A DNA stretch of 64,000 nucleotides from Escherichia coli. GTDB taxonomy: Bacteria; Pseudomonadota; Gammaproteobacteria; Enterobacterales; Enterobacteriaceae. Shown piece after piece: positions 1,902-58,038 of the stretch (position 1 is its first letter; each line of letters begins with the position of its first letter). The position numbers were made by a program, and so were the translations under genes. The stretch is from NCBI RefSeq assembly GCF_041886205.1, contig NZ_CP169029.1; one strand, written 5' to 3'. The notes beneath the pieces are model-generated. The model had not been told where the DNA came from and ran no database searches. It was given only the letters and a program-made list of their open reading frames with translations.

Positions 1902-2981
1902 TTAATTAATTTCAAAATCCAAATCCAGGTCGTCTTCTTTTTCATCAGTCGAAGACCCATTTTTACGCGCCAGACTTTTCAGCACGTTCACACAAACAGC
2001 CGTCACCACTGCTCCGACAGCCACTGCTGCGATATAACCCAGCTTGCCTTCAACCACCGGCAGCACAATCAGACCACCCCAGCCTGCATAGCACTGCGCA
2101 CCGACCAGCGCCGCAGTTACTGCACCACAAACTGAACCGACCATGATGGAAGGAATGACACGCAGCGGATCGGCAGCGGCGAAAGGAATCGCCCCTTCAG
2201 TAACGCCAACACAGCCCATCACCAGTGCCGCTTTGCCGGTTTCGCGCTCTTCTGCGGAGAAATTTTTACGACCAATCAGCGTCGCCAGCCCCATCCCCAG
2301 CGGCGGGATACAAATACCCACGGCAGCGATGGCCACCACGGTATAAACACCCTGAGCAACGCAAATCAGCATGAAGGCATAGGCCACTTTGTTAACCGGA
2401 CCGCCCATATCGAACGCCAGCATCAGACCCATGATCACCGCCAGCATAACAATGCTGCCCTGCTGCATCCCCTGAAGCCACTGAGTCAGGCTGTTGGTCA
2501 ACGCCCCTACAGGCTCGCCCAAGCCCCACATCATGATGCCTGCGGTAATCAGTGTGCCGACGATAGGAATAATGAAGATAGGCATCACCGAGCGCAGAAC
2601 TTTATGCACCGGAATTTTCTTCAGGTAATGCACCACGATGCCGCCGATAATCCCGGCGATCAGTGCACCAAAGAAGCCCGCACCAAAGCTGTTACCAACC
2701 CAGGCACCGATAGCGCACGGAGCCAGCGCAGAACGCTCTGCAATGGAATAACCGATGTACGCTGCGAGGAAAGGCACCATCAGCGTCAAGCCCGCAACGC
2801 CGATATCAAACAGTTTTTTCAGATTTGGATCGGCTACGGCATCCGGCACTGCGCCTTTGCCATACAACATGACGGAAACCGCCAGCAAAATACCGCCCGA
2901 TACCACGAAGGGAATCATGTGTGAAACGCCCGTCATTAAATGCTGACGGGTATTTTTCAGGATCTGCACCAACTCATTCAT
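1902..2981 (-). CDS. frwC: PTS fructose-like EIIC permease
   Basis: 359-aa hydrophobic multi-TM ORF; synteny frwC-frwB-pflD. Confidence 0.9.
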   Translation of the reverse strand: MNELVQILKNTRQHLMTGVSHMIPFVVSGGILLAVSVMLYGKGAVPDAVADPNLKKLFDIGVAGLTLMVPFLAAYIGYSIAERSALAPCAIGAWVGNSFGAGFFGALIAGIIGGIVVHYLKKIPVHKVLRSVMPIFIIPIVGTLITAGIMMWGLGEPVGALTNSLTQWLQGMQQGSIVMLAVIMGLMLAFDMGGPVNKVAYAFMLICVAQGVYTVVAIAAVGICIPPLGMGLATLIGRKNFSAEERETGKAALVMGCVGVTEGAIPFAAADPLRVIPSIMVGSVCGAVTAALVGAQCYAGWGGLIVLPVVEGKLGYIAAVAVGAVVTAVCVNVLKSLARKNGSSTDEKEDDLDLDFEIN

Positions 2982-3289
2982 AAGCTGCTCCCGGGCTTGC
3001 GAAAGCCCATGTCCATATTTTTGATGGAGGAAACAATAGGCAATCGCAGGCGGAGCAAACAGTGGATAAAAAGGCCATTTACTGGACTTTTGTAATATCA
3101 GTACAAAAATGCGATCCGCCTCATAACTTGCGATAAACCGGAAGCATGCCGCAAAACAGCGTCTTGTGAGACGCGTCGCAAATTGACGGTTACATTACAT
3201 TTGTCCAGCTTTTGGCAGATTTGTCACATGGCAGGCCGTTGCCGTGCGCTCTTATCCTGTAAACAGAAAACCGTACCGGGAGAGAGGCA

Positions 3290-5791
3290 ATGGCCCTGAT
3301 TGTGGAATTTATTTGTGAGCTACCTAACGGCGTACATGCGCGTCCGGCAAGCCACGTTGAAACGCTGTGTAATACTTTTTCATCACAAATTGAGTGGCAT
3401 AACCTGCGCACTGACCGCAAGGGCAACGCCAAAAGCGCCCTTGCGCTGATTGGCACCGATACGCTGGCGGGCGATAACTGCCAGTTACTGATTTCCGGGG
3501 CCGACGAACAGGAAGCGCACCAGCGTTTAAGCCAATGGCTGCGCGATGAATTCCCCCACTGCGATGCGCCGCTGGCGGAAGTTAAATCTGACGAACTGGA
3601 ACCACTGCCGGTTTCACTGACCAATCTGAATCCGCAAATTATCCGCGCCCGCACCGTGTGCAGCGGTAGTGCAGGCGGCATTCTGACGCCGATCTCTTCT
3701 TTAGATCTCAATGCGCTGGGTAATCTTCCCGCAGCCAAAGGCGTTGACGCCGAGCAATCCGCACTGGAAAACGGCCTGACGCTGGTACTGAAAAACATTG
3801 AGTTTCGTCTGCTGGATAGCGACGGTGCTACCAGCGCGATTCTGGAAGCGCACCGATCCCTGGCTGGCGATACTTCCCTGCGCGAACATTTACTGGCAGG
3901 TGTCAGCGCCGGATTAAGCTGCGCCGAAGCAATTGTCGCCAGTGCGAATCACTTTTGCGAAGAGTTCGCCCGTTCCAGCAGCAGCTACCTGCAAGAACGT
4001 GCCCTGGACGTACGCGACGTCTGCTTCCAGTTACTCCAGCAAATCTACGGTGAGCAACGCTTCCCGGCACCGGGCAAACTGACGCAGCCCGCCATTTGTA
4101 TGGCTGATGAACTGACTCCCAGCCAGTTCCTCGAACTGGATAAAAATCACCTCAAAGGTCTGTTACTGAAAAGTGGCGGCACCACCTCACATACCGTAAT
4201 TCTTGCCCGTTCGTTCAACATTCCGACACTGGTTGGTGTAGATATTGATGCCCTTACTCCGTGGCAGCATCAAACGATTTATATCGACGGCAACGCCGGG
4301 GCGATTGTGGTTGAGCCAGGGGAAGCCGTGGCCCGTTATTATCAGCAAGAAGCCCGCGTACAGGACGCTCTGCGTGAGCAACAGCGTGTCTGGCTGACCC
4401 AACAAGCGCGTACCGCTGACGGTATCCGCATTGAAATTGCCGCTAACATCGCTCACTCCGTGGAAGCGCAGGCCGCATTCGGCAATGGTGCGGAAGGCGT
4501 TGGTTTGTTCCGCACTGAAATGCTCTATATGGATCGCACCAGTGCACCGGGTGAAAGCGAGCTGTACAACATTTTTTGTCAGGCGCTGGAGTCTGCAAAC
4601 GGACGCAGCATTATTGTGCGCACTATGGACATTGGCGGCGACAAACCCGTTGATTATCTAAACATTCCCGCAGAGGCAAACCCGTTCCTCGGTTATCGCG
4701 CCGTGCGTATTTATGAAGAATACGCGTCGTTATTTACCACACAACTACGCTCGATCCTGCGCGCCTCCGCTCACGGCAGCCTGAAAATCATGATCCCGAT
4801 GATCTCCTCAATGGAAGAGATCTTATGGGTGAAAGAAAAACTGGCAGAAGCCAAACAGCAACTACGTAACGAACACATTCCGTTTGATGAGAAGATCCAG
4901 CTCGGCATTATGCTGGAAGTGCCGTCGGTGATGTTCATCATCGATCAATGCTGTGAAGAGATTGATTTCTTTAGTATTGGTAGTAATGACCTGACGCAAT
5001 ATCTGCTGGCAGTGGATCGCGATAACGCTAAGGTTACTCGTCACTACAACAGCCTGAATCCGGCATTCTTGCGGGCGCTCGATTACGCCGTGCAAGCGGT
5101 GCATCGCCAGGGCAAATGGATTGGTCTGTGCGGTGAACTGGGAGCGAAAGGTTCCGTGCTGCCGTTGCTGGTCGGTTTAGGGCTGGATGAACTCAGCATG
5201 AGCGCACCATCAATTCCGGCGGCGAAAGCGCGGATGGCGCAACTTGATAGCCGCGAATGCCGCCAGTTGCTCAACCAGGCAATGGCCTGCCGTACTTCGC
5301 TGGAAGTGGAACACCTGCTGGCACAATTCCGCATGACACAACAGGACGCACCGCTGGTCACCGCCGAGTGCATCACGCTGGAAAGCGACTGGCGCAGCAA
5401 AGAAGAAGTACTGAAAGGCATGACCGATAACCTGCTACTGGCAGGCCGCTGCCGCTATCCGCGTAAACTGGAAGCCGACTTGTGGGCGCGCGAGGCCGTT
5501 TTCTCTACCGGTCTGGGCTTTAGTTTTGCCATTCCACACAGCAAATCAGAACACATTGAGCAATCCACCATCAGCGTGGCGCGTCTGCAAGCGCCGGTGC
5601 GCTGGGGCGATGATGAAGCGCAATTCATCATTATGTTAACCCTGAACAAACACGCTGCGGGCGATCAGCACATGCGCATTTTCTCGCGCCTCGCTCGCCG
5701 CATCATGCACGAAGAATTCCGTAACGCGCTGGTTAACGCCGCCTCTGCCGACGCTATCGCCAGCCTGCTGCAACATGAACTGGAACTGTAA
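3290..5791 (+). CDS. ptsA: Multiphosphoryl transfer protein (HPr-EI-EIIA fusion) of fructose-like PTS
   Basis: 833-aa ORF with an EI-like PEP-utilising core ([21 protein letters not shown]) and C-terminal EIIA-like domain; divergent from frwC. Confidence 0.9.
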
Positions 5792-6475: not shown

Positions 6476-7579
6476 ATGGACCGCATTATTCAATCACCGG
6501 GTAAATACATCCAGGGCGCTGATGTGATTAATCGTCTGGGCGAATACCTGAAGCCGCTGGCAGAACGCTGGTTAGTGGTGGGTGACAAATTTGTTTTAGG
6601 TTTTGCTCAATCCACTGTCGAGAAAAGCTTTAAAGATGCTGGACTGGTAGTAGAAATTGCGCCGTTTGGCGGTGAATGTTCGCAAAATGAGATCGACCGT
6701 CTGCGTGGCATCGCGGAGACTGCGCAGTGTGGCGCAATTCTCGGTATCGGTGGCGGAAAAACCCTCGATACTGCCAAAGCGCTGGCACATTTCATGGGTG
6801 TTCCGGTAGCGATCGCACCGACTATCGCCTCTACCGACGCACCGTGCAGCGCATTGTCTGTTATCTACACCGATGAGGGTGAGTTTGACCGCTATCTGCT
6901 GTTGCCAAATAACCCGAATATGGTCATTGTCGACACCAAAATCGTCGCGGGCGCACCTGCACGTCTGTTAGCAGCGGGTATCGGCGATGCGCTGGCGACC
7001 TGGTTTGAAGCGCGTGCATGCTCTCGTAGCGGTGCGACCACCATGGCGGGCGGCAAGTGCACCCAGGCGGCGCTGGCACTGGCTGAACTGTGCTACAACA
7101 CCCTGCTGGAAGAAGGCGAAAAAGCGATGCTTGCCGCCGAACAGCATGTAGTGACTCCGGCGCTGGAGCGCGTGATTGAAGCGAACACCTATTTAAGCGG
7201 TGTAGGCTTTGAAAGTGGTGGTCTGGCTGCGGCGCACGCAGTGCATAACGGCCTGACCGCTATCCCGGACGCGCATCACTATTATCACGGTGAAAAAGTG
7301 GCATTTGGTACACTGACGCAGCTGGTTCTGGAAAACGCACCGGTTGAGGAAATCGAAACCGTAGCTGCACTTAGCCATGCGGTAGGTTTGCCAATAACTC
7401 TCGCTCAACTGGATATTAAAGAAGATGTCCCGGCGAAAATGCGAATTGTGGCAGAAGCGGCATGTGCAGAAGGTGAAACCATCCACAACATGCCTGGCGG
7501 CGCGACGCCAGATCAGGTTTACGCCGCTCTGCTGGTAGCCGACCAGTACGGTCAGCGTTTCCTGCAAGAGTGGGAATAA
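6476..7579 (+). CDS. gldA: Glycerol dehydrogenase
   Basis: ORF-track entry 6437..7579 trimmed to internal ATG 6476 ([17 protein letters not shown]); iron-containing ADH family; 367 aa. Confidence 0.9.
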
Positions 7580-7624: not shown

Positions 7625-7722
7625 GCCTGATGCGCTACGCTTATCAGGCCTACGCAATCTCTGCAATATATTGAATTTGCGTACCTTTGTAGGCCGGATA
7701 AGGCGTTCACGCCGCATCCGGC
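7625..7722. repeat. RIP/BIME-type element: two inverted REP sequences flanking an AT-rich IHF-site-like spacer
   Basis: gcctgatgcgctacgcttatcaggcctac ... aatatattgaatttgc ... gtaggccggataaggcgttcacgccgcatccggc; same architecture recurs at 23051-23148 and 43868-43966. Confidence 0.8.
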
Positions 7723-7853
7723 ACTCTGTGCCAGTAATCTGAAACTCCCACGTTGTTCAGGAGTTTTTTATCCGCTTCTGGACATTTTCTCCACAGAACA
7801 ATAGTTAGTCCGGAAGGTCGAATCTGTGACTCTTATTTTCACGGACGAACCAG

Positions 7854-12005: not shown

Positions 12006-12899
<894 letters not shown>

Positions 12900-12945
12900 T
12901 TACCTCATCAATCGCTTGTTGTTATATGTTGTGTTGTGCACATCT

Positions 12946-12977
12946 ATCCATTTAGACGTCCAGATGTAAAGATGAAG
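12946..12977 (-). promoter_or_regulatory. Tandem met-box (MetJ operator) repeats upstream of metF
   Basis: agacgtcc agatgtaa agatgaag: three consecutive 8-mers resembling the AGACGTCT consensus, about 50-80 bp upstream of the metF start. Confidence 0.6.
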
Positions 12978-13307
12978 GAAAAGCCGCAGGGCGTCAACCG
13001 AAAAATGACCACTGATGGTGAGGAAAAATCAGGGAAGTTGAAATTTTTTCATCTGAAGAAAAAAACAGGGATACCAATGTTCAGTATGAGGTGAATATTG
13101 GGAAAATGCTGACGTTATTAATTTTATATTTATTTAAATGATGATTCATTCTGATTTATTTACTTAAAAAATGAATTATATTTTCAAATAAAACAAAAAG
13201 ATACTTTAAGCCTCTCCGGCCTCCTCGCTTTTAATTTTGAACCACTTCAAACAAATAATAAATTCCTAAGAATTAAGTTGCAGACAAATTATACATCCCT
13301 CACGATA

Positions 13308-13335
13308 AGTAGAACGTTCTAGTAGAACGTTCTAC
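13308..13335. promoter_or_regulatory. Tandem palindromic operator-like site upstream of the PTS gene
   Basis: aagtagaacgttctagtagaacgttctact: two abutting copies of a palindrome centred on CG (TAGAACGTTCTA); the second copy is a perfect 16-bp palindrome AGTAGAACGTTCTACT; lies about 55 bp upstream of the PTS start codon. Confidence 0.5.
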
Positions 13336-13389
13336 TTATATAAATAATCGTTCTTGCGCAGTCATCTGCGCTATTCGGGGGAAATCAGC

Positions 13390-14889
13390 ATGGGTCTGAT
13401 ATCGAGTGTCGTAAAATCACTTTCTAAACTGTCGATGATTGGTCGCGCGCTGATGCTGCCAATTTCGCTTCTGCCTGCCGCCGGGTTGTTACTGGCGTTC
13501 GGCGATAAATTCCACATGCCGTTGATGATGAATGCCGGCGGTATCATTTTTGATAACTTGCCGATGCTTTTTGCTATCGGTTCTGCCGTGGGACTGGCTT
13601 CAGAATCGGGTATTGCGGCGCTATCCGCAGCTGTATCCGTCTTTGTCACTAATATCACCATCGGTACTGTCCTTGGCATCACACCAGAGATGGCCGGGCA
13701 AGGCGGTAAATATGCGATGGTGGTGGGGATCCCAACGCTGCAAATGGGCGTCTTCGGCGGCCTGATATGCGGGGTTCTGGCGGCGTGGTGTTACAACCGT
13801 TTTCATACCATGCAATTACCAGAATTCCTTGGCTTTTTCTCCGGCAAACGCTTCGTGGCTATCGCGACGGCTTTTCTTTCCTTCATCCTTGGCTTGTTAC
13901 TGCCCTATGTCTGGCAACATATTCAGTCGGGAATCGATGCCCTATCAGTTATCGTCAATGGTGATAACCAGGCGGCATCGACCTTTATTTTTGGTGTGAC
14001 AGAACGTGCGCTCATTCCGCTTGGCCTGCACCACATCTGGTATCCATCGTTCTGGTACTCTTTTGGTGATTACACCACCCAGGCAGGCCAAATGATCCAC
14101 GGTGACCAAACAATTTGGTTCAAAATGCTGGAAGAAGGTGTGAAATCGTTCAGTAGCGACAGCTACCATAACGCGGGTAAGTTTTTACAGGGCGAGTTTC
14201 CGCTCATGCTGTTCGCGCTGCCTGCGGCGTGTCTGGCGATGTACCATGAAGCACACACCAAAAATAAGAAAATTGCCGCCGGTATTCTGTTCTCTGCCGC
14301 ATTAACCTGTTTCCTGACAGGTATTACAGAACCCGTTGAATTTACCTTTATTTTCGTGGCACCGGTACTGTACGTATTTAACGCGATAATGGCTGGCCTC
14401 TCCTATATGGCGATGTATCTGCTCCATGCCCACATTGCAAAATCCTTCTCGGCAGGGCTTATCGATTATATTTCGTTTGGCATCCTGCCATCATTTAACG
14501 GCTACGAAACCAACTTCCTGAGTGCCATTATTGTTGGCGTACCGATGGCGATTATCTATTACTTCACTTTCCGCTTTGTTATTCGCCGTTTTGATGTGAA
14601 AACACCGGGTCGAGCCGAAAGCACTGTATCCGCTAACGATAAAACCGATGATGAACTGGCTACGGAAATTATCAGTCTGCTGGGCGGCCAACAAAATATC
14701 TCTTCCGTCGCATCCTGCATAACGCGCCTGCGTCTGGAAGTGGCGGATAAAGATGTGGTTGATAAAGATGGACTGAACAATGTCGGTGCTCGTGGTGTGG
14801 TTTTCGTCGGCGAGAACGGCATTCAGGTGATTTTTGGCGCACGTGCACAATTTATCGCGCAAACCATGTCGACGATGATTGGCAAATAG
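13390..14889 (+). CDS. PTS glucose-family EIICB permease (substrate unknown)
   Basis: ORF-track entry 13354..14889; start placed at ATG 13390 (GGGGG 8 nt upstream). Multi-TM EIIC domain followed by an EIIB domain with the phospho-Cys motif SVASCITRLRLEV. Confidence 0.8.
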   Translation: MGLISSVVKSLSKLSMIGRALMLPISLLPAAGLLLAFGDKFHMPLMMNAGGIIFDNLPMLFAIGSAVGLASESGIAALSAAVSVFVTNITIGTVLGITPEMAGQGGKYAMVVGIPTLQMGVFGGLICGVLAAWCYNRFHTMQLPEFLGFFSGKRFVAIATAFLSFILGLLLPYVWQHIQSGIDALSVIVNGDNQAASTFIFGVTERALIPLGLHHIWYPSFWYSFGDYTTQAGQMIHGDQTIWFKMLEEGVKSFSSDSYHNAGKFLQGEFPLMLFALPAACLAMYHEAHTKNKKIAAGILFSAALTCFLTGITEPVEFTFIFVAPVLYVFNAIMAGLSYMAMYLLHAHIAKSFSAGLIDYISFGILPSFNGYETNFLSAIIVGVPMAIIYYFTFRFVIRRFDVKTPGRAESTVSANDKTDDELATEIISLLGGQQNISSVASCITRLRLEVADKDVVDKDGLNNVGARGVVFVGENGIQVIFGARAQFIAQTMSTMIGK

Positions 14890-14962
14890 TCATAAGATTA
14901 CGCTTTGTTGGAGGTTCTGGTCCCTGACTGGAACCTTCGTGCTTATTGTTCAGGGAGTGAAT

Positions 14963-15979
14963 TTGAAGAAAGTCAGCATAATTGATGTTGCCAAAAGCGC
15001 AGGAGTCTCAGTCTCTACTGTGTCGCTGGTCCTGCGCCAGAAAGGCAAAATTTCCGAGGCAACCATCGAGAAAGTTCATGCTGCCATTACTGAGCTTGGC
15101 TACGTGCATAATGTTGCCGCCGCCAATTTACGCTCCAACACTTCAAATCTTATCGGTCTGATTTTACGTGATTTTAGCGATAGCTTTTCCATCAAAGTGA
15201 TGGCAAGTATTGTTCAGGAACTGGAAGCACAAGGATATATGGTGTTCCTCGGGCAACCACAAAACGAGCATGAACATCTTGAACGCTGTTTGCTTTCCTT
15301 CAAGCAACAAGGTGTTGCCGGAGTGATTTATCTGGCTTCCGATGCGCAGCGTGAAACCTTACCTGGGCTGATTCGCCAGTGCCCTCTTCCTCTTGTCGTC
15401 ACCTCACAATCCCCCATCAAAGATGAATGCAATCTGGTATTGCGCGACAACCAGCAGGCGGCAAGCCTTGCCGCGCGTTATTTAATTGAGCGTGGACATC
15501 GTTACATTGCCTACCTCGGCGGCAGAGAAAGCGATCTTATCCGCCAACAGCGACTGGTGGGTTTTCGCCAGACCCTGGCAAAATTCGGTATTGCCAGTCG
15601 TGACGAGTTCACGCCAGCCTGTGACGATGATACATACGCCGCCAGCATGGCCACGCGCCAGTTGTTGGAGAATAACAATGCTATCACCGCCCTACTCTGC
15701 CATTCGCCCGAGGCCATGATTGGCAGCATCAACGGCATACATCAGGTGGGGCGCACCGTCGGGAGAGACATCTTTCTGACCCAGCAGGTGGCGCTAATTG
15801 GTTTTGAGGATATGCTGCACATCAACCTGACCTCTCCCGTTTTCACCTATGTCTCTTCCGCCAGTGAAGAAACCGGACGCCAGGCCGCTAATCTGATAAT
15901 CCGCAAATTAAAAGACCCGGAGCTGCAAATTCAAAGAATTGCGCTTTCGGGGCAACTGGTAGTGCGGGAATCGGCGTAA
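14963..15979 (+). CDS. LacI/GalR-family transcriptional regulator
   Basis: ORF-track entry 14879..15979; N-terminal HTH KKVSIIDVAKSAGVSVSTVSLVL followed by a periplasmic-binding-protein-like effector domain; start tentatively TTG 14963 (AGGGAG 5 nt upstream), start codon uncertain. Confidence 0.75.
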   Translation: MKKVSIIDVAKSAGVSVSTVSLVLRQKGKISEATIEKVHAAITELGYVHNVAAANLRSNTSNLIGLILRDFSDSFSIKVMASIVQELEAQGYMVFLGQPQNEHEHLERCLLSFKQQGVAGVIYLASDAQRETLPGLIRQCPLPLVVTSQSPIKDECNLVLRDNQQAASLAARYLIERGHRYIAYLGGRESDLIRQQRLVGFRQTLAKFGIASRDEFTPACDDDTYAASMATRQLLENNNAITALLCHSPEAMIGSINGIHQVGRTVGRDIFLTQQVALIGFEDMLHINLTSPVFTYVSSASEETGRQAANLIIRKLKDPELQIQRIALSGQLVVRESA

Positions 15980-16052
15980 TACAAATGCCGAATGAGATGT
16001 ACGTCGATATCGTCATCCGGCAATAAGGTGTAAACCAACTTAATGCGTATGA

Positions 16053-17606
16053 TTACTTGATATCCTTCACGCGCATACCGTTGAGCTGTTCATCCGTGAT
16101 GGTGTTACCCGCTTTGAAGTAATCAACCACGGCGTGATAAACATAATAACCGCCGGTTGTGTTGCGCGCCTGACCCTCGGTAAATGCGGTAAAACCATCT
16201 CCACCATCAGCAAGGAAACTCTGGGTGGCAATAGAATAAACTGTCGCATCTTCAATGGGTTTGCCATTCAGAGTCAGTGTGATTACCCGCTGACCAACCA
16301 GTTTGCTGCTGTCGTACTTCATTTCCAGGCCTTTCGATACCTGTAAAACGCCATTACTTAAACTTGCGCCGTGTTCCATCAAACTGCGTAATTGTTTACC
16401 CGTGAGTTCCATCGTCACCAGTTCGTTGGGGAACGGGAAGGTACTGATGACGCCGCCCATCGTAATCGCCCCTGCGGGGATCTCATTGCGAATACCACCA
16501 GAGTTGGTTAACGCCAATTGGGTGTTTTTACCCGCCGCTACCAGTAAAGCGTCCGCCGCCAGGTTCCCGAGGGAAGCCGATTCACCATAGGCACGTTTTA
16601 ATTCAACCGGCGACTGCGCCACCGTTTGTTGCACCACTTCATCAAGCTTTTTATTCCAGCCGTCGATTACCTGTTTCGTTTGCGGATCGGGCTTCCACTC
16701 GTCGGCGTAAATGGTTTTAAGCTCGAAGTTTTTCACCGTAAAATCATGCGGCTTCTCTTTGTAGTCGAGAACCAGTTTGCCCACATCAATCCCGCCGCTG
16801 TCAGTGGAAAGGATGAGTGTATTGCCGACTTTAATCGGTTCCGGCGTACCCACATGTGCATGTCCGGTGATCAAAATATCCAGCCCTTTCACCTGACTTG
16901 CCGTCTGGATATCTTTATCCAACGCGCGACGCACATCCGTGCCTCCCATACTGGACTGGCGGGCCGGAACACCTTCGTGGATCAGGGCGACGGTTAGATC
17001 AACCTTGCCTTTGAGTTCATCGATATAACGTTGTAGCCATTTAATTTCATCGCGCGCTTCAATACCCACGCGCGTGGCAGCAGATACCGTATCGTTGAAG
17101 GCAAATACGCCGTGCAAACCTATAACGCCAATTTTCACGCCGTCTTTTTCGATGATGGTATATGGCTTATCCCAGAATGATTTACTGCTGTTCTGATAAA
17201 AAACATTGCCCTGCACAATAGGGAATTTTGCCTGACTCAACTGTAATAATGTGTTGTCCCAGCCGTGGTCAAATTCATGGTTGCCTATCGTGACGGCATC
17301 AAACGGCATAGTATTCATAATATCGATAATAGCCTTACCTTTGGTCAGGCTGCTGATATAGGGCCCGGTAAAATAATCACCCGCATCAAAAAACCATGTC
17401 GCTTTATTTTTTGCTTTTTCTTGCTTAACCAGCGTAGTGATATTTGCCCAGCCGCCAATATCCCGTTTACCGTCAGCGATCCACGGCACTTTATAAGGCT
17501 CGACATGCGCATGGAGGTCGTTGGTATAAATGATGGTGACATCTTTGGCGCAAGCCCAGAACGGCAATGTTAATGCGATACCCGCAGCAAGTATTTTAAT
17601 TTTCAT
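16053..17606 (-). CDS. Secreted bifunctional metallophosphoesterase / 5'-nucleotidase (UshA-like)
   Basis: 517-aa ORF with signal peptide [20 protein letters not shown]; calcineurin-like motifs DLHAH, GDYF, GNHEFD, GHAH, then a 5'-nucleotidase C-terminal-type domain. Confidence 0.75.
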
Positions 17607-17738: not shown

Positions 17739-18869
17739 ATGTCGACTCTGTTTACGATTAATGCCTGCAAGTCGTTTGGTTGCCGTAATTTAGGGCAACC
17801 AACATCGACAGATTACAGCTGGCCAGACTATCGACTGGGTTATCCGGCACTGCACTGTCGGGCATGTGGAAGTTACCCGCCTTTGTTTGACGAACAGCAA
17901 TTTCGTGACTGGCTGTCAGTTCACTTATCTACTTTTGCAACTGAGAAAGGTCATTTCTGCCCGGTATGTTATGGCACAAAGACGATTTGTTATGGCCACA
18001 ATCCACAGGGGTCGCAACGCATTCAATGTCGTAACTGCAAAAAAGTCTGGACACCTAAACAATATCAGAAAGAAATAACGCCTCCTGAAATAATCGAAAC
18101 GGTTGCTCTTCTGGTGCCATTTCAGGGAGCCAGCAATGGGCAGAAACTGTATGTTTTAATCAGTTTTGATGCTCTTCGCGGTAATATTCTTCATCTTTCT
18201 ACTAATTACACGCAGCATCAGGCTGGAGAAAGTCTGCATTATCGATACAGAGGAAATGCAGAACCAGAGTTACACGAGAGTAATATTGTACAACGCGTTG
18301 ATATGCGCGAAGCACAATTTCTACGCCGCAGTCAGTTTGATGAAATTCAGTATGGCAGCGCAGCGCTCAAACGCAATGCTAAAGGTGTTATTCTGCGTCC
18401 GGTTATCACTGCACACGGGCATTTCAGAGTACTGAATATTTTATTCCCTACAGTAAAAACACATGTAATTTCACACGAGTGTTTTTTAAGAGGTGCCATT
18501 ATTACGGCATGGGCTGATCTTTTTCGCCAACAGCAAGGTGAGATTTGGTTTATTGAAGAGGAAATAGCTGACTATACCGATAATATGCCCTGGAGTTTTC
18601 AGGGAACAACTTATCACGGCTGGTGGAAAAATCAGTGGCAACTTTGGGTTCAGGGCAAAAATCGTAAAATGGTATGTGCATTAACAGGCGGAAATAACAG
18701 CAAAGCTGAAATGCTCTCTTTCGCAACCAGCAGACATTTTATCGACTGGCTACATAAACAAGCAGTATTTACTCACAGCACCCCGCTTTCCGCAGGGCGC
18801 GTTACGCAAATACTGCTTTCTCTGGCTCAGGATTACAACAACTGCGCCAGCCGGTTGATATCCGACTGA
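17739..18869 (+). CDS. Hypothetical protein with N-terminal Cys-rich zinc-ribbon-like motifs; function unknown
   Basis: 376-aa ORF; four CxxC pairs in the first ~100 aa (HCRACGS, CPVCYG, CRNCKK); lower GC than neighbours; 3' end overlaps the metL 3' end by 37 bp on the opposite strand. Confidence 0.5.
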   Translation: MSTLFTINACKSFGCRNLGQPTSTDYSWPDYRLGYPALHCRACGSYPPLFDEQQFRDWLSVHLSTFATEKGHFCPVCYGTKTICYGHNPQGSQRIQCRNCKKVWTPKQYQKEITPPEIIETVALLVPFQGASNGQKLYVLISFDALRGNILHLSTNYTQHQAGESLHYRYRGNAEPELHESNIVQRVDMREAQFLRRSQFDEIQYGSAALKRNAKGVILRPVITAHGHFRVLNILFPTVKTHVISHECFLRGAIITAWADLFRQQQGEIWFIEEEIADYTDNMPWSFQGTTYHGWWKNQWQLWVQGKNRKMVCALTGGNNSKAEMLSFATSRHFIDWLHKQAVFTHSTPLSAGRVTQILLSLAQDYNNCASRLISD

Positions 18870-21265
18870 ATCGCCCCGGCGGTGACATCGCGCCCTGCGC
18901 CTGGTCCGCGGATCACCAGCGGGTTATCGCGATACCAGCGGCTTTCGATGGCAAAGACGTTATCGCACGGCAGCAGTGATGCCAGCGGATGGTCTTCACG
19001 CACCGCTTCCACGCCCACACGCGCTTTGCCATTGGCATCGAAACGCGCCACGTAGCGCAGCACCAGCCCCATTTCGCGGGCCGCTTCCAGCCGTTGCACC
19101 ATCTGCTCGTTCAGTTCATCGCCATTTTCAAAGAAATGGTCGATGCTGCCGCCTTCGCAATGGGCAGGCACCAGCGATTCAACGCGCACCTGATCCGGTT
19201 CGATGTCGTAACCCGCTTCACGCGCCAGAATCACCAGCTTGCGCATCACGTCTTTGCCGGAAAGGTCATCACGCGGGTCAGGTTCGGTTAAGCCCTGCTG
19301 CCACGCCTGATCCACCAGCTCGGTAAACGGCACGCTACCGTCGAATTGCAGGAACAGCCAGGAGAGCGTGCCAGAGAAGATCCCGCTGATCGACAAAATA
19401 GTATCGCCGCTATCGATCAGATCGCGCACGGTATGGTTGATCGGCAAGCCCGCACCGACGGTGGCATTGTACAGCCAGTGACGCCCGGTTTTTTCGAAGG
19501 CGTCGTGGATCTGGCGATATTTATTGCTGTCGCTGGCTCCTGCCAGTTTGTTGGCGCTAATGACGTGGAAACCGTGGCTGGCGAAATCGAGATACTGGTC
19601 AGCAAGCTGCTGGCTGGCGGTAACGTCCAGCACCACTAAATCATCATACGGATGGGCGCGCATCCACAGGAACAGCGACTCTTCATCCTGCTCGACCGCT
19701 TCATCGTTGAAGAAGGCTAACGCGCGGCTGGCGTCCAGCCCGTCATAACTCAACAGGCTACGGCGGCTGTCCACCACACCTGCCAGCACAAATTCAAAGC
19801 CGGTACGCGCCGAAAGCGTGCTCTGCTCACGGGCGAACAGTTCCAGCCAGCGGGAACCGATATTGCCCTTGCCGAACAATACCAGGCCGATGCGTTTTTC
19901 CGCGCGGAAGACGGACTGATGCAGCCCCTGAATCAGGCTTTCGGTCGGGCCGGTGCGCAGTACTGCCACCAGGCTGATGCCGTCATCGGACTGCCAGGTA
20001 AACTCGACCGGCTGGCCTTTCAGTTGCTGCCAGAAGCGGTGGCAATGCAGCGGGTTACGGGTGACACCCGCCCCGACCATCGCCACTAGCGCCAGCCCCT
20101 GACGCAGGCGCAGTTCGCCAGGTAATCCCGCTTCGTCGAGAATTTTCAGCGCACTGTCAGCGACTTCTGAGGTGTAGCAAAATTGCAGCAACTGGCGATC
20201 GTTATGCACGCCAACCGCCAGTGGGCGCACCTGAGCACGTTTCAGGATCTGGTCGATCTCTTTATGCGCCAGTTTGAAATCCTGGCTGGCGGGCACCTGA
20301 AACTCAATCAAGCAGACATCATCGTGGCTGGTGACAATACGCGCTCCAGTACCGGAGGCCAGCACGCGTTCAATGCGCGTGGAACCTTGATCCGGCGTGT
20401 AGCTACAGCGCAGCTGCAGGTCGATTTCGCTGCCAGAAACCGGCTGTAAAGTACGGGCGTGAAGAACGGGAGCCGCCAGACGCGCCAGTTCGCTGGCTTC
20501 ATCCAGACGCAGCAACGGTAGCAGGCAGGCATCTTTCACTTTACGCGGGTCGGCACTGTATACCCCGGCGACGTCGCTCCAGATGGTTACACGAGAAACA
20601 CCCGCCAGCGCACCGATTTGTGTCGCGGAATAGTCGGAACCGTTACGCCCCAGCAGCACCGTTTCACCGGCGTTGTTACGGCTGATAAACCCGGTCACCA
20701 CCAGACGTTTGCCCGGATGTTGCACCAGTAGCTGTTGCAGCAACGGGTAAGAAAGCCCTTCATCAACCTGCGGTTGCGCAGCGCGTTCAGCGCGTAAAAA
20801 CTCGCGGGCATCAAGCCAGGCCGCTGACAGCCCTTGTTGATTAAGCACCGCAGACATCAGGCGTGCCGACCATACTTCCCCGTGGCCCACCACTTCCGCA
20901 TACACCGCGTCGTTAATACCGCTGTCGAGCAGCGCCGCCAGGCGCTCAAGATCGCTGACAAAAGCGCTAATGAGGCTATCGGCTTCTTCAGCGGGTAACA
21001 GACCGCTAATCAGATCGCACTGATAGCGACGCAGCGTTTGTTGAACCTGATGCGCAGAGAGACGATCGGTCTGGCTTAGTTTCAACCAGTTAATCAACTG
21101 GTTAGTGGTGCTACCGGCGGCGGAAACCACCATCATATCGTCAGGCTGAGAGTACTCCGCCATAATGCCCGCGACACGCAAATAACACTTCACATCAGCC
21201 AGACTACTGCCACCAAATTTATGCAGTTGACGACCTTTCGCCCCTGCCTGCGCAATCACACTCAT
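18833..21265 (-). CDS. metL: Bifunctional aspartokinase II / homoserine dehydrogenase II
   Basis: 810-aa ORF MSVIAQAGAKGRQLHKFGGSSLADVKCYLRVAGIMAEY. Confidence 0.95.
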   Translation of the reverse strand: MSVIAQAGAKGRQLHKFGGSSLADVKCYLRVAGIMAEYSQPDDMMVVSAAGSTTNQLINWLKLSQTDRLSAHQVQQTLRRYQCDLISGLLPAEEADSLISAFVSDLERLAALLDSGINDAVYAEVVGHGEVWSARLMSAVLNQQGLSAAWLDAREFLRAERAAQPQVDEGLSYPLLQQLLVQHPGKRLVVTGFISRNNAGETVLLGRNGSDYSATQIGALAGVSRVTIWSDVAGVYSADPRKVKDACLLPLLRLDEASELARLAAPVLHARTLQPVSGSEIDLQLRCSYTPDQGSTRIERVLASGTGARIVTSHDDVCLIEFQVPASQDFKLAHKEIDQILKRAQVRPLAVGVHNDRQLLQFCYTSEVADSALKILDEAGLPGELRLRQGLALVAMVGAGVTRNPLHCHRFWQQLKGQPVEFTWQSDDGISLVAVLRTGPTESLIQGLHQSVFRAEKRIGLVLFGKGNIGSRWLELFAREQSTLSARTGFEFVLAGVVDSRRSLLSYDGLDASRALAFFNDEAVEQDEESLFLWMRAHPYDDLVVLDVTASQQLADQYLDFASHGFHVISANKLAGASDSNKYRQIHDAFEKTGRHWLYNATVGAGLPINHTVRDLIDSGDTILSISGIFSGTLSWLFLQFDGSVPFTELVDQAWQQGLTEPDPRDDLSGKDVMRKLVILAREAGYDIEPDQVRVESLVPAHCEGGSIDHFFENGDELNEQMVQRLEAAREMGLVLRYVARFDANGKARVGVEAVREDHPLASLLPCDNVFAIESRWYRDNPLVIRGPGAGRDVTAGAIQSDINRLAQLL

Positions 21266-23050: not shown

Positions 23051-23148
23051 CGCCTGATGCGCTACGCTTATCAGGCCTACGTCATATTGCAATTTATTGA
23101 ATTTGCACGAACTTGTAGGCCGGATAAGGCGTTCACGCCGCATCCGGC
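23051..23148. repeat. RIP/BIME-type element (inverted REP pair with IHF-site-like spacer)
   Basis: gcctgatgcgctacgcttatcaggcctac ... tgcaatttattgaatttgca ... gtaggccggataaggcgttcacgccgcatccggc. Confidence 0.8.
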
Positions 23149-23205
23149 ATAAACAACGAGCACGTTGTCTGCGACCCACCGCTTTTTATACATGGACGTT
23201 TAACT

Positions 23206-43867: not shown

Positions 43868-43966
43868 GCCGGATGCGGCGCGAACGCCTTATCCGGCCTA
43901 CAAAAGTTTGCAAATTCAATAAATTGCAGAATTCATGTAGACCTGATAAGCGAAGCGCATCAGGCC
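43868..43966. repeat. RIP/BIME-type element (inverted REP pair with IHF-site-like spacer)
   Basis: gccggatgcggcgcgaacgccttatccggcctac ... tgcaaattcaataaattgca ... gtagacctgataagcgaagcgcatcaggcc. Confidence 0.8.
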
Positions 43967-48945: not shown

Positions 48946-49029
48946 GTAGGCAGGATAAGGCGTTTACGCCGCATCCGGCATTTGAGCAGGATGCCTGATG
49001 CGACGCTGATAGCGTCTTATCAGGCCTAC
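48946..49029. repeat. REP pair (BIME)
   Basis: gtaggcaggataaggcgtttacgccgcatccggca ... gcctgatgcgacgctgatagcgtcttatcaggcctac. Confidence 0.8.
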
Positions 49030-57816: not shown

Positions 57817-58038
57817 TGCCGGATGCGGCGCGAGCGCCTTATCCGGCCTACAGGTCGGCAACAGTTGTAGGCCTGATAAGACGCGACAGCGTCGCATCAG
57901 GCATTGATTGCCGGATGCGGCACGAGTGCCTTATCCGGCCTACAGGTCGGCAATAGTTGTAGGCCTGATAAGACGCGACAGCGTCGCATCAGGCATTGAT
58001 TGCCGGATGCGGCACGAGCGCCTTATCCGGCCTACGGG
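57817..58038. repeat. Tandemly repeated BIME unit (~92 bp x ~2.4) between rhaA and rhaD
   Basis: Unit tgccggatgcggcgcgagcgccttatccggcctacaggtcggcaacagttgtaggcctgataagacgcgacagcgtcgcatcaggcattgat repeated at 57817-57908 and 57909-58000 with 3 substitutions; partial third copy to about 58038. Confidence 0.85.

Follow-up and report, generated by a model that had tools for sequence, protein, structure and literature searches.

We show here that the spacer between two genes of an accessory sugar-uptake cassette of Escherichia coli encodes a hairpin (14910-14938, + strand) which, judging from its pattern of change across species, is a real structure of the sense mRNA, kept by selection between a permease gene and a repressor gene. 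The hairpin was found in a window of 64,000 nucleotides, this being the whole stretch of DNA analysed (contig NZ_CP169029.1 of assembly GCF_041886205.1). The reading that we favour, with modest confidence, is that of an attenuator within an operon, i.e. a leaky intrinsic terminator that may also protect the 3' end of the permease transcript. As we detail below, it is the comparison between species, rather than the copy in the window, that makes this case.

The upstream gene of the cassette (13390-14889, + strand, RefSeq annotation) encodes a PTS EIICB protein of the glucose family, of 499 amino acids, whose best NCBIfam match is TIGR02002 (E 9e-169, under the cut-off of that model). The downstream gene (14963-15979, + strand, RefSeq annotation) starts with TTG and encodes a regulator of 338 amino acids, of the LacI family and MalI subfamily (NCBIfam NF007449, 319.5 bits for a cut-off of 310). 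Its Shine-Dalgarno region, as read from the sequence, is CAGGGAG at 14951-14957; of the 29 distinct orthologous sequences, about half have this same motif and the others a purine-rich variant of it. Both genes are intact in the window. The pair sits in an accessory segment between metF and metL, and it is complete in 8 of 5426 complete E. coli genomes. This location is shared only by Escherichia and Kluyvera, which identifies the two-gene cassette as the conserved unit. An EIICB permease and a LacI-type repressor are all that it encodes. The cassette (13390-15979 in the window, and also loci L003-L030) is self-contained: no gene for a catabolic enzyme is conserved beside it.

The surroundings of the cassette have features of their own. 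A metallophosphatase/5'-nucleotidase gene (16053-17606, - strand) is intact in the window and a truncated pseudogene in L002. In about 1860 other E. coli genomes the match covers only about 7% of a 3.2-kb query, under features annotated as the metallophosphatase/5'-nucleotidase gene. Such partial matches suggest that in most of the species the island has been eroding. Between the convergent regulator and nucleotidase genes lies an imperfect hairpin (15987-16021, GCCGAAUGA...UCAUCCGGC) that is flanked by T-rich sequence on the - strand alone (AUUUGUAUU). This hairpin is probably the terminator of the nucleotidase gene, and no canonical terminator of the regulator gene was found on the + strand at 15987-16021. 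Further on, a hypothetical ORF of 376 amino acids (17739-18869, + strand) and metL (18833-21265, - strand) overlap by 37 nt at their 3' ends. The only hints on the family of this ORF are weak matches to the N-terminal zinc-binding domain of IS1/IS1595, with E of about 2e-4, below the cut-off.

A hairpin between the two genes had been proposed from the DNA of the window, and its sequence, aggttctggtc-cct-gactggaacct (14912-14936, + strand), is exactly where it was expected. The announced stem of 11 pairs, including two G-U, around a 3-nt loop does form. The helix extends outward beyond this core to 13 pairs (14910-14938), which adds a third G-U; there are 6 G-C pairs and the loop is CCU. A scan for terminator patterns counts one pair more, i.e. 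14 pairs between 14909 and 14939. The distances to the flanking genes needed slight correction. The core begins 22 nt after the PTS stop codon (from TAG at 14887-14889 to 14912), not 23, and it ends 26 nt before the regulator start (from 14936 to the TTG at 14963 in the RefSeq annotation), not 27. As in intrinsic terminators, the hairpin of the sense strand is stable (-16.8 to -18.6 kcal/mol), with a stem only moderately rich in G+C, since just 6 of its 13-14 pairs are G-C. In a context of 46 nt the + strand folds at -18.6 kcal/mol, with a z-score of -4.79 and none of 200 shuffles being equal; in a context of 91 nt the z-score is only -1.78. The + strand of the whole window contains 37 hairpins of -16.8 kcal/mol or less within 35 nt, for 25.3 +/- 4.5 in dinucleotide shuffles. 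Hairpins of this stability are thus common across the window, and the single sequence is weak evidence for a function.

Much stronger evidence comes from orthologous loci. We searched one genome per species with the regulator protein and obtained 28 loci, with 65-96% identity in the regulator, from about 12 genera: clades of Escherichia, Kluyvera, Silvania, Citrobacter, Kosakonia, Mixta, Franconibacter, Siccibacter, Atlantibacter, Buttiauxella, Erwinia and Serratia. In all 28 the PTS EIICB gene is followed by the adjacent LacI/MalI-type regulator gene on the same strand, with a spacer of 59-98 nt, and every one of these spacers has a strong hairpin (-14.7 to -23 kcal/mol) that starts 4-22 nt past the PTS stop. 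The stem sequences are highly divergent, as illustrated by those of Kluyvera (GGAGGUUCCCGU/AUGGGAGCCUCC), Erwinia rhapontici (CGUCUCCUGUA/UACGGGAGACG) and Kosakonia (GGCCUGGCAUGC/GCAUGUCAGGCC). Between the window and its closest variant, of L002-type Escherichia, there are exactly two differences, both in the 3' arm. Where the window has two G-U pairs this variant has a G-C and a U-A, and pairing is kept.

Pairing was also put to the test of covariation. A MAFFT alignment, made with no structural input, comprised 29 distinct spacers extended by 20 nt of coding flank each. RNAalifold predicted a single helix in the 145 columns. This helix is the intercistronic hairpin, and 8 of its 9 pairs show double compensatory changes. 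On this structure 96.3% of the cells are paired, for 77.0 +/- 1.8% when the 3' partners are shuffled, and double changes are found in 52 cells for 15.2 in shuffles. The covariation score is 0.618, for 0.284 in the shuffled alignments (none of 500 reaches the observed score), and it falls to 0.07-0.21 when the partner is slid by 1-3 columns. Compensatory covariation across orthologs indicates that the structure of the hairpin is under selection. Since it is pairing that is conserved and not sequence, the hairpin is expected to work as a folded single strand and not as a DNA site bound by a protein.

Two of the loci call for a comment. In L012 (Kluyvera genomosp. 3, 2416-3909) the PTS gene is split over several frames and the operator boxes are mutated, while the hairpin and the regulator gene are retained; the split gene is probably a pseudogene, or else the result of sequencing errors. 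L014, whose record bears the title Chryseobacterium sp. 18061, closely resembles the locus of Citrobacter sp. 18056, and its PTS protein has 90% identity with that of the window. This assembly is probably mislabelled or contaminated with a genome of Enterobacterales.

Which strand carries the structure can be told from the folds. Of 30 hairpins, 27 contain G-U pairs. In 26 of the 30 sequences the + strand folds more stably than the - strand, with a mean of -19.8 kcal/mol for -16.1, and in the window itself the values of this comparison are -16.8 and -9.2 kcal/mol. The more stable + strand fold and the widespread G-U pairs point to a hairpin acting in the sense transcript. A function on the - strand was considered on its own and rejected: that strand of the window folds at just -9.3 kcal/mol and has no T-run.

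How would such a transcript arise? Some 55 nt upstream of the PTS start lies a perfect palindrome of 35 bp (13305-13339), with arms 100% complementary, made of two TAGAACGTTCTA boxes (13310-13321 and 13323-13334). The box, or the pair of boxes, is kept upstream of the PTS gene in 28 out of 28 loci. As is typical of operators of the LacI family, the palindrome has sequence-conserved adjacent half-sites around a central CG. The MalI-like regulator probably has its operator here, which would overlap the promoter of the operon. A possible -35 hexamer of this promoter is TTGCAG (13278-13283, + strand). It was proposed because TTGC(A/G/C) is conserved 25-35 nt upstream of the operator in orthologs, and a consensus promoter scan did not call it. 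The same scan found no sigma-70-like promoter on the + strand between 12800 and 16300. Neither the scan nor a reading of 14900-14962 revealed in the spacer a promoter for the regulator gene alone. A promoter within the PTS coding region might escape a consensus scan. Some Escherichia variants (L002, at 6535-6556, as well as L004 and L005) have an insertion of 14 nt between the hairpin and the Shine-Dalgarno region of the regulator gene. It contains ATCAACGTTGTT, with the same AACGTT core as the operator boxes; this could be a fortuitous resemblance or an additional, degenerate operator.

The operator pair upstream of the PTS gene is the sole conserved control region. In the absence of a promoter between hairpin and regulator start, transcription of the regulator gene probably passes through the hairpin. 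Hence the arrangement resembles that of internal terminators, where co-directional genes have no promoter between the hairpin and the downstream gene, the two genes being presumably co-transcribed. If expression of the regulator indeed depends on polymerases that get past the hairpin, complete termination at this site would preclude it. With a hairpin inside an apparent two-gene operon that has one upstream control region, lowering the regulator relative to the permease is the natural reading.

We thus propose the following scheme. The operon would consist, in this order, of a promoter with a double operator, the PTS EIICB permease gene, the hairpin and the LacI/MalI-type repressor gene. The hairpin would form in the transcript about 20 nt past the permease stop codon and, with its imperfect U-rich tail, would stop a fraction of the polymerases. 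Only those reading through would provide message for the repressor. The same hairpin would shield the short permease transcript from 3' exonucleases by capping its 3' end. The net result would be more permease message than repressor message from one promoter under control of the repressor. The weak TTG start of the regulator gene might push the same way, and TTG or GTG starts are found in many lineages. Between stem and regulator start there are from 24 nt, in the window, to 42 nt, in orthologs, Shine-Dalgarno region included. We infer co-transcription of both genes, formation of 3' ends at the hairpin and an effect on the ratio of expression. There are precedents for such a scheme. In E. coli K-12, 264 candidate terminators inside operons apparently allow partial read-through (PMC4161252), and in ABC importer operons internal terminators with low-U tails set the stoichiometry of transcripts (PMC9045158). 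We found no relevant literature on this specific operon junction.

The strength of termination should depend on the tail. In orthologs, T makes up 59% of the 8 nt that follow the last consensus pair, for 31% between stop and stem and 20% further downstream, and it is nearly fixed at positions +3 and +6 after the stem. T-richness directly after the stem is found in 27 of 29 sequences, the exceptions being Kosakonia and Mixta, where the hairpin is present and the T-rich tail absent. Judged on this average of 59% T, the tail is of the kind described for internal terminators, i.e. U-rich with a lowered U content (PMC9045158). Some tails are those of canonical terminators (L014 UUUUUUAUC, L015 UUUUUAUC, L023 UUUUUUAC), and that of Kluyvera, UUGUUUU, is nearly so. 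Studies made mainly with the RNA polymerase of E. coli suggest that three or more U next to the hairpin are necessary (PMC3993855). A U-tract of 7-9 nt with at least three adjacent U is found in L014, L015 and L023, and nearly so in Kluyvera. The window is less well endowed. The original prediction pointed to a U-rich stretch after the hairpin. The cuuauuguu in question does exist (14942-14950), yet it does not abut the stem, from which it is separated by 'gug' or 'ucgug'. What follows the stem is a T-rich but interrupted tail, GTGCTTATTGTT (14939-14950, + strand), a poor U-tract. There are 4 T in the 8 nt after the stem, or 3 depending on the boundary of the alignment column. The tail GUGCUUAUUGUU (UCGUGCUU when counted from the 11-bp core) passes the loose terminator-like pattern of the scan, and it lacks the three or more U abutting the stem of a canonical U-tract. 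A score of the d'Aubenton-Carafa type, only indicative, is -17 for the window, negative in about half of the orthologs and positive in about half.

Given this poor U-tract, termination at the hairpin of the window is probably weak, and its efficiency in this strain would be low. A partial terminator is better supported by these features for Kluyvera, Citrobacter sp. 18056 and Erwinia rhapontici than for the copy in the window. Hence the prediction of a partial terminator or processing site that uncouples permease and regulator fares well in part: the structure is selected on the sense strand, the T-rich flank is conserved and the position is that expected in a two-gene operon, but the tail of the window lacks three or more U beside the stem.

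This leads to the main alternative, namely that there is no termination at all and that the hairpin is purely a barrier to decay or a processing element. The bicistronic mRNA would either be cleaved, e.g. in the AU-rich stretch downstream of the hairpin by RNase E, or undergo degradation from the 3' end; with the hairpin blocking 3' exonucleases, the permease segment would outlive the regulator segment. No lineage lacks the hairpin, whereas Kosakonia and Mixta have no U-tract and the window only a poor one. A hairpin more conserved than the U-tract fits a role as decay barrier at least as well. Such roles are known: conserved protective structures shape the stoichiometry of E. coli operons by differential decay (PMC5927463), and a study on the gal operon (PMC11925234) describes 3' ends produced by RNase E cleavage as protected by hairpins. 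Against this alternative stands the T-rich flank of 27 out of 29 sequences, among them some canonical tails, because a plain barrier to exonucleases needs none. We regard it as possible and lean against it in this pure form. Termination and protection from decay are not mutually exclusive, and the attenuator that we favour may combine both.

One might also speculate that the element is a relic in this strain, i.e. an ancestral terminator that has lost its U-tract, whose stem is weakened to three G-U pairs and which has no measurable effect. The window and L003 share the second-weakest hairpin (-16.8 kcal/mol; only that of L008 is weaker, with -14.7), with three G-U pairs and a low tail score, and the cassette is seldom found in E. 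coli (8 complete genomes of 5426) and lies beside genes that erode in other strains. But this is at odds with the two differences from the L002-type hairpin, which preserve pairing (G-C to G-U and U-A to U-G), with a stem that is still an uninterrupted 13 bp and with the integrity of both flanking genes. A relic is thus unlikely.

Even less probable, in our opinion, is a regulated element. This could be a conditional attenuator, with read-through varying with the supply of sugar or with an RNA-binding factor like Hfq or ProQ, or the terminator of a small RNA made from the 3' end of the permease mRNA. The evidence is circumstantial: the coding sequence is immediately followed by a conserved structured 3' end, and about half of the orthologs share a short motif, TAAGAT, between the stop codon and the stem. 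If this were true, the permease-to-repressor ratio would be tunable after the start of transcription. However, there is neither a conserved alternative (antiterminator) pairing nor an Rfam match, none of the four neighbouring proteins scanned is an antiterminator of the BglG/SacY type, and the spacer before the stem has only 4-22 nt, with little conservation otherwise. The more specific identity of a terminator controlled by a BglG/SacY antiterminator was rejected, the cassette having no gene for a PRD antiterminator and no conserved pairing upstream of the stem.

Control of translation deserves even less credit. The 5' arm and loop could in principle mask the Shine-Dalgarno region of the regulator gene, since UCCCUGA in the window (14921-14927) is complementary to UCAGGGA (14950-14956), and the corresponding duplexes of Atlantibacter and Mixta have z-scores of about -2 to -2.6. 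Yet over 30 sequences such duplexes do not outperform shuffles of matched composition (mean z -0.49), that of the window has a z-score of -1.3 with 10% of the shuffles being equal, and the hairpin (-17 to -23 kcal/mol) far outcompetes this pairing (-7 to -17 kcal/mol). An anti-Shine-Dalgarno element was hence rejected, duplex energies being no better than with shuffled arms in the 30 sequences. Finally, it is barely credible that the hairpin is a DNA palindrome bound by a protein, e.g. a second operator of the regulator: the arms of Escherichia and Kluyvera do hold GTTCT and (A/G)GAAC, resembling the half-sites TAGAAC and GTTCTA, but these are everted, 13 nt apart and without a central CG, only pairing is conserved in the stem, G-U pairs spoil the DNA palindrome, and the true operator pair, strongly conserved in sequence, lies elsewhere. 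In the window the palindrome is indeed imperfect, with arms only 82% complementary because of the G-U pairs. As an identity for the hairpin, a regulator operator was discarded, the arms varying freely and the likeness to half-sites being confined to Escherichia and Kluyvera.

We also asked if the hairpin belongs to a known class of elements. A scan of 12800-16200 against Rfam 15, at E up to 10, gave no match in 14890-14962. The hairpin is not a REP, BIME or MITE repeat: it is single-copy in the window, allowing up to 3 mismatches, and its spacer is found once per genome in 8 E. coli genomes of 5426. True REPs found elsewhere in the window differ from it in sequence. These repeats of the REP/BIME type (GCCGGATGCGGCG... 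and GCCTGATAAGACGCG..., at 57818-58032, 7691-7726, 23119-23149, 43868-43898 and 48993-49026) make up many of the strongest hairpins of the window and are ordinary features of E. coli.

These results mark an unannotated and conserved regulatory RNA structure in an uncharacterised accessory cassette for sugar uptake, present in some twelve genera of Enterobacterales. Combined with the double operator, this structure suggests a full and testable wiring: a repressible promoter, the permease first, an attenuating hairpin and a weakly translated repressor. A high permease-to-repressor ratio under negative autoregulation is a textbook device, and our results would add an example to it rather than a new principle. 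They might be of practical use for the annotation of operons. They also provide a natural series of hairpins and tails of graded predicted strength for the study of leaky terminators.

The attenuator that we favour has its closest counterparts among internal partial terminators, such as that of sdhCDAB-sucABCD and the 264 candidates of K-12 (PMC4161252), or those that follow the genes for substrate-binding proteins in ABC importer operons of Clostridia (PMC9045158). In all of them a stem-loop lies between co-directional genes with no promoter between. The tail has fewer U than in terminators at the end of operons and an excess of the upstream cistron is expected, as would be the case here. One difference is that the tail of the window is poorer than that of typical leaky terminators. 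Besides, the gene that would be attenuated here is the operon's own repressor, in an uncharacterised accessory permease-repressor cassette.

Protective hairpins between cistrons are the second natural comparison. They include the REP between malE and malF and the hairpin of the puf operon of Rhodobacter. Our hairpin is like these, and like the protective structures described in E. coli operons (PMC5927463), in being stable, conserved in structure and located at the 3' end of the cistron expected to be more abundant. Unlike them, it is not a REP, is single-copy, lies in the spacer and not inside a coding sequence, and has a conserved T-rich tail.

Operons for PTS sugars offer two further parallels. 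In the bgl operon of E. coli, terminators flank bglG and are under the control of an antiterminator of the BglG/SacY type. Operons of this type share with ours a terminator-like hairpin between the genes of a PTS sugar operon that includes its regulator. Yet the regulator is here a DNA-binding repressor of the LacI/MalI type, no PRD antiterminator is found among the four neighbouring proteins scanned and we saw no RAT-like sequence. The other parallel is with malI/malXY of K-12, which associates a repressor of the MalI subfamily with a PTS EIICB of the glucose family and has a palindromic operator with a central ACGT core, as here. In E. coli K-12, malI is transcribed divergently from malXY. 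In the cassette, by contrast, the regulator gene is downstream of the permease gene on the same strand, the hairpin lies at their junction, there is no malY-like gene, and the permease is nearer the models of PtsG/GlcB than MalX.
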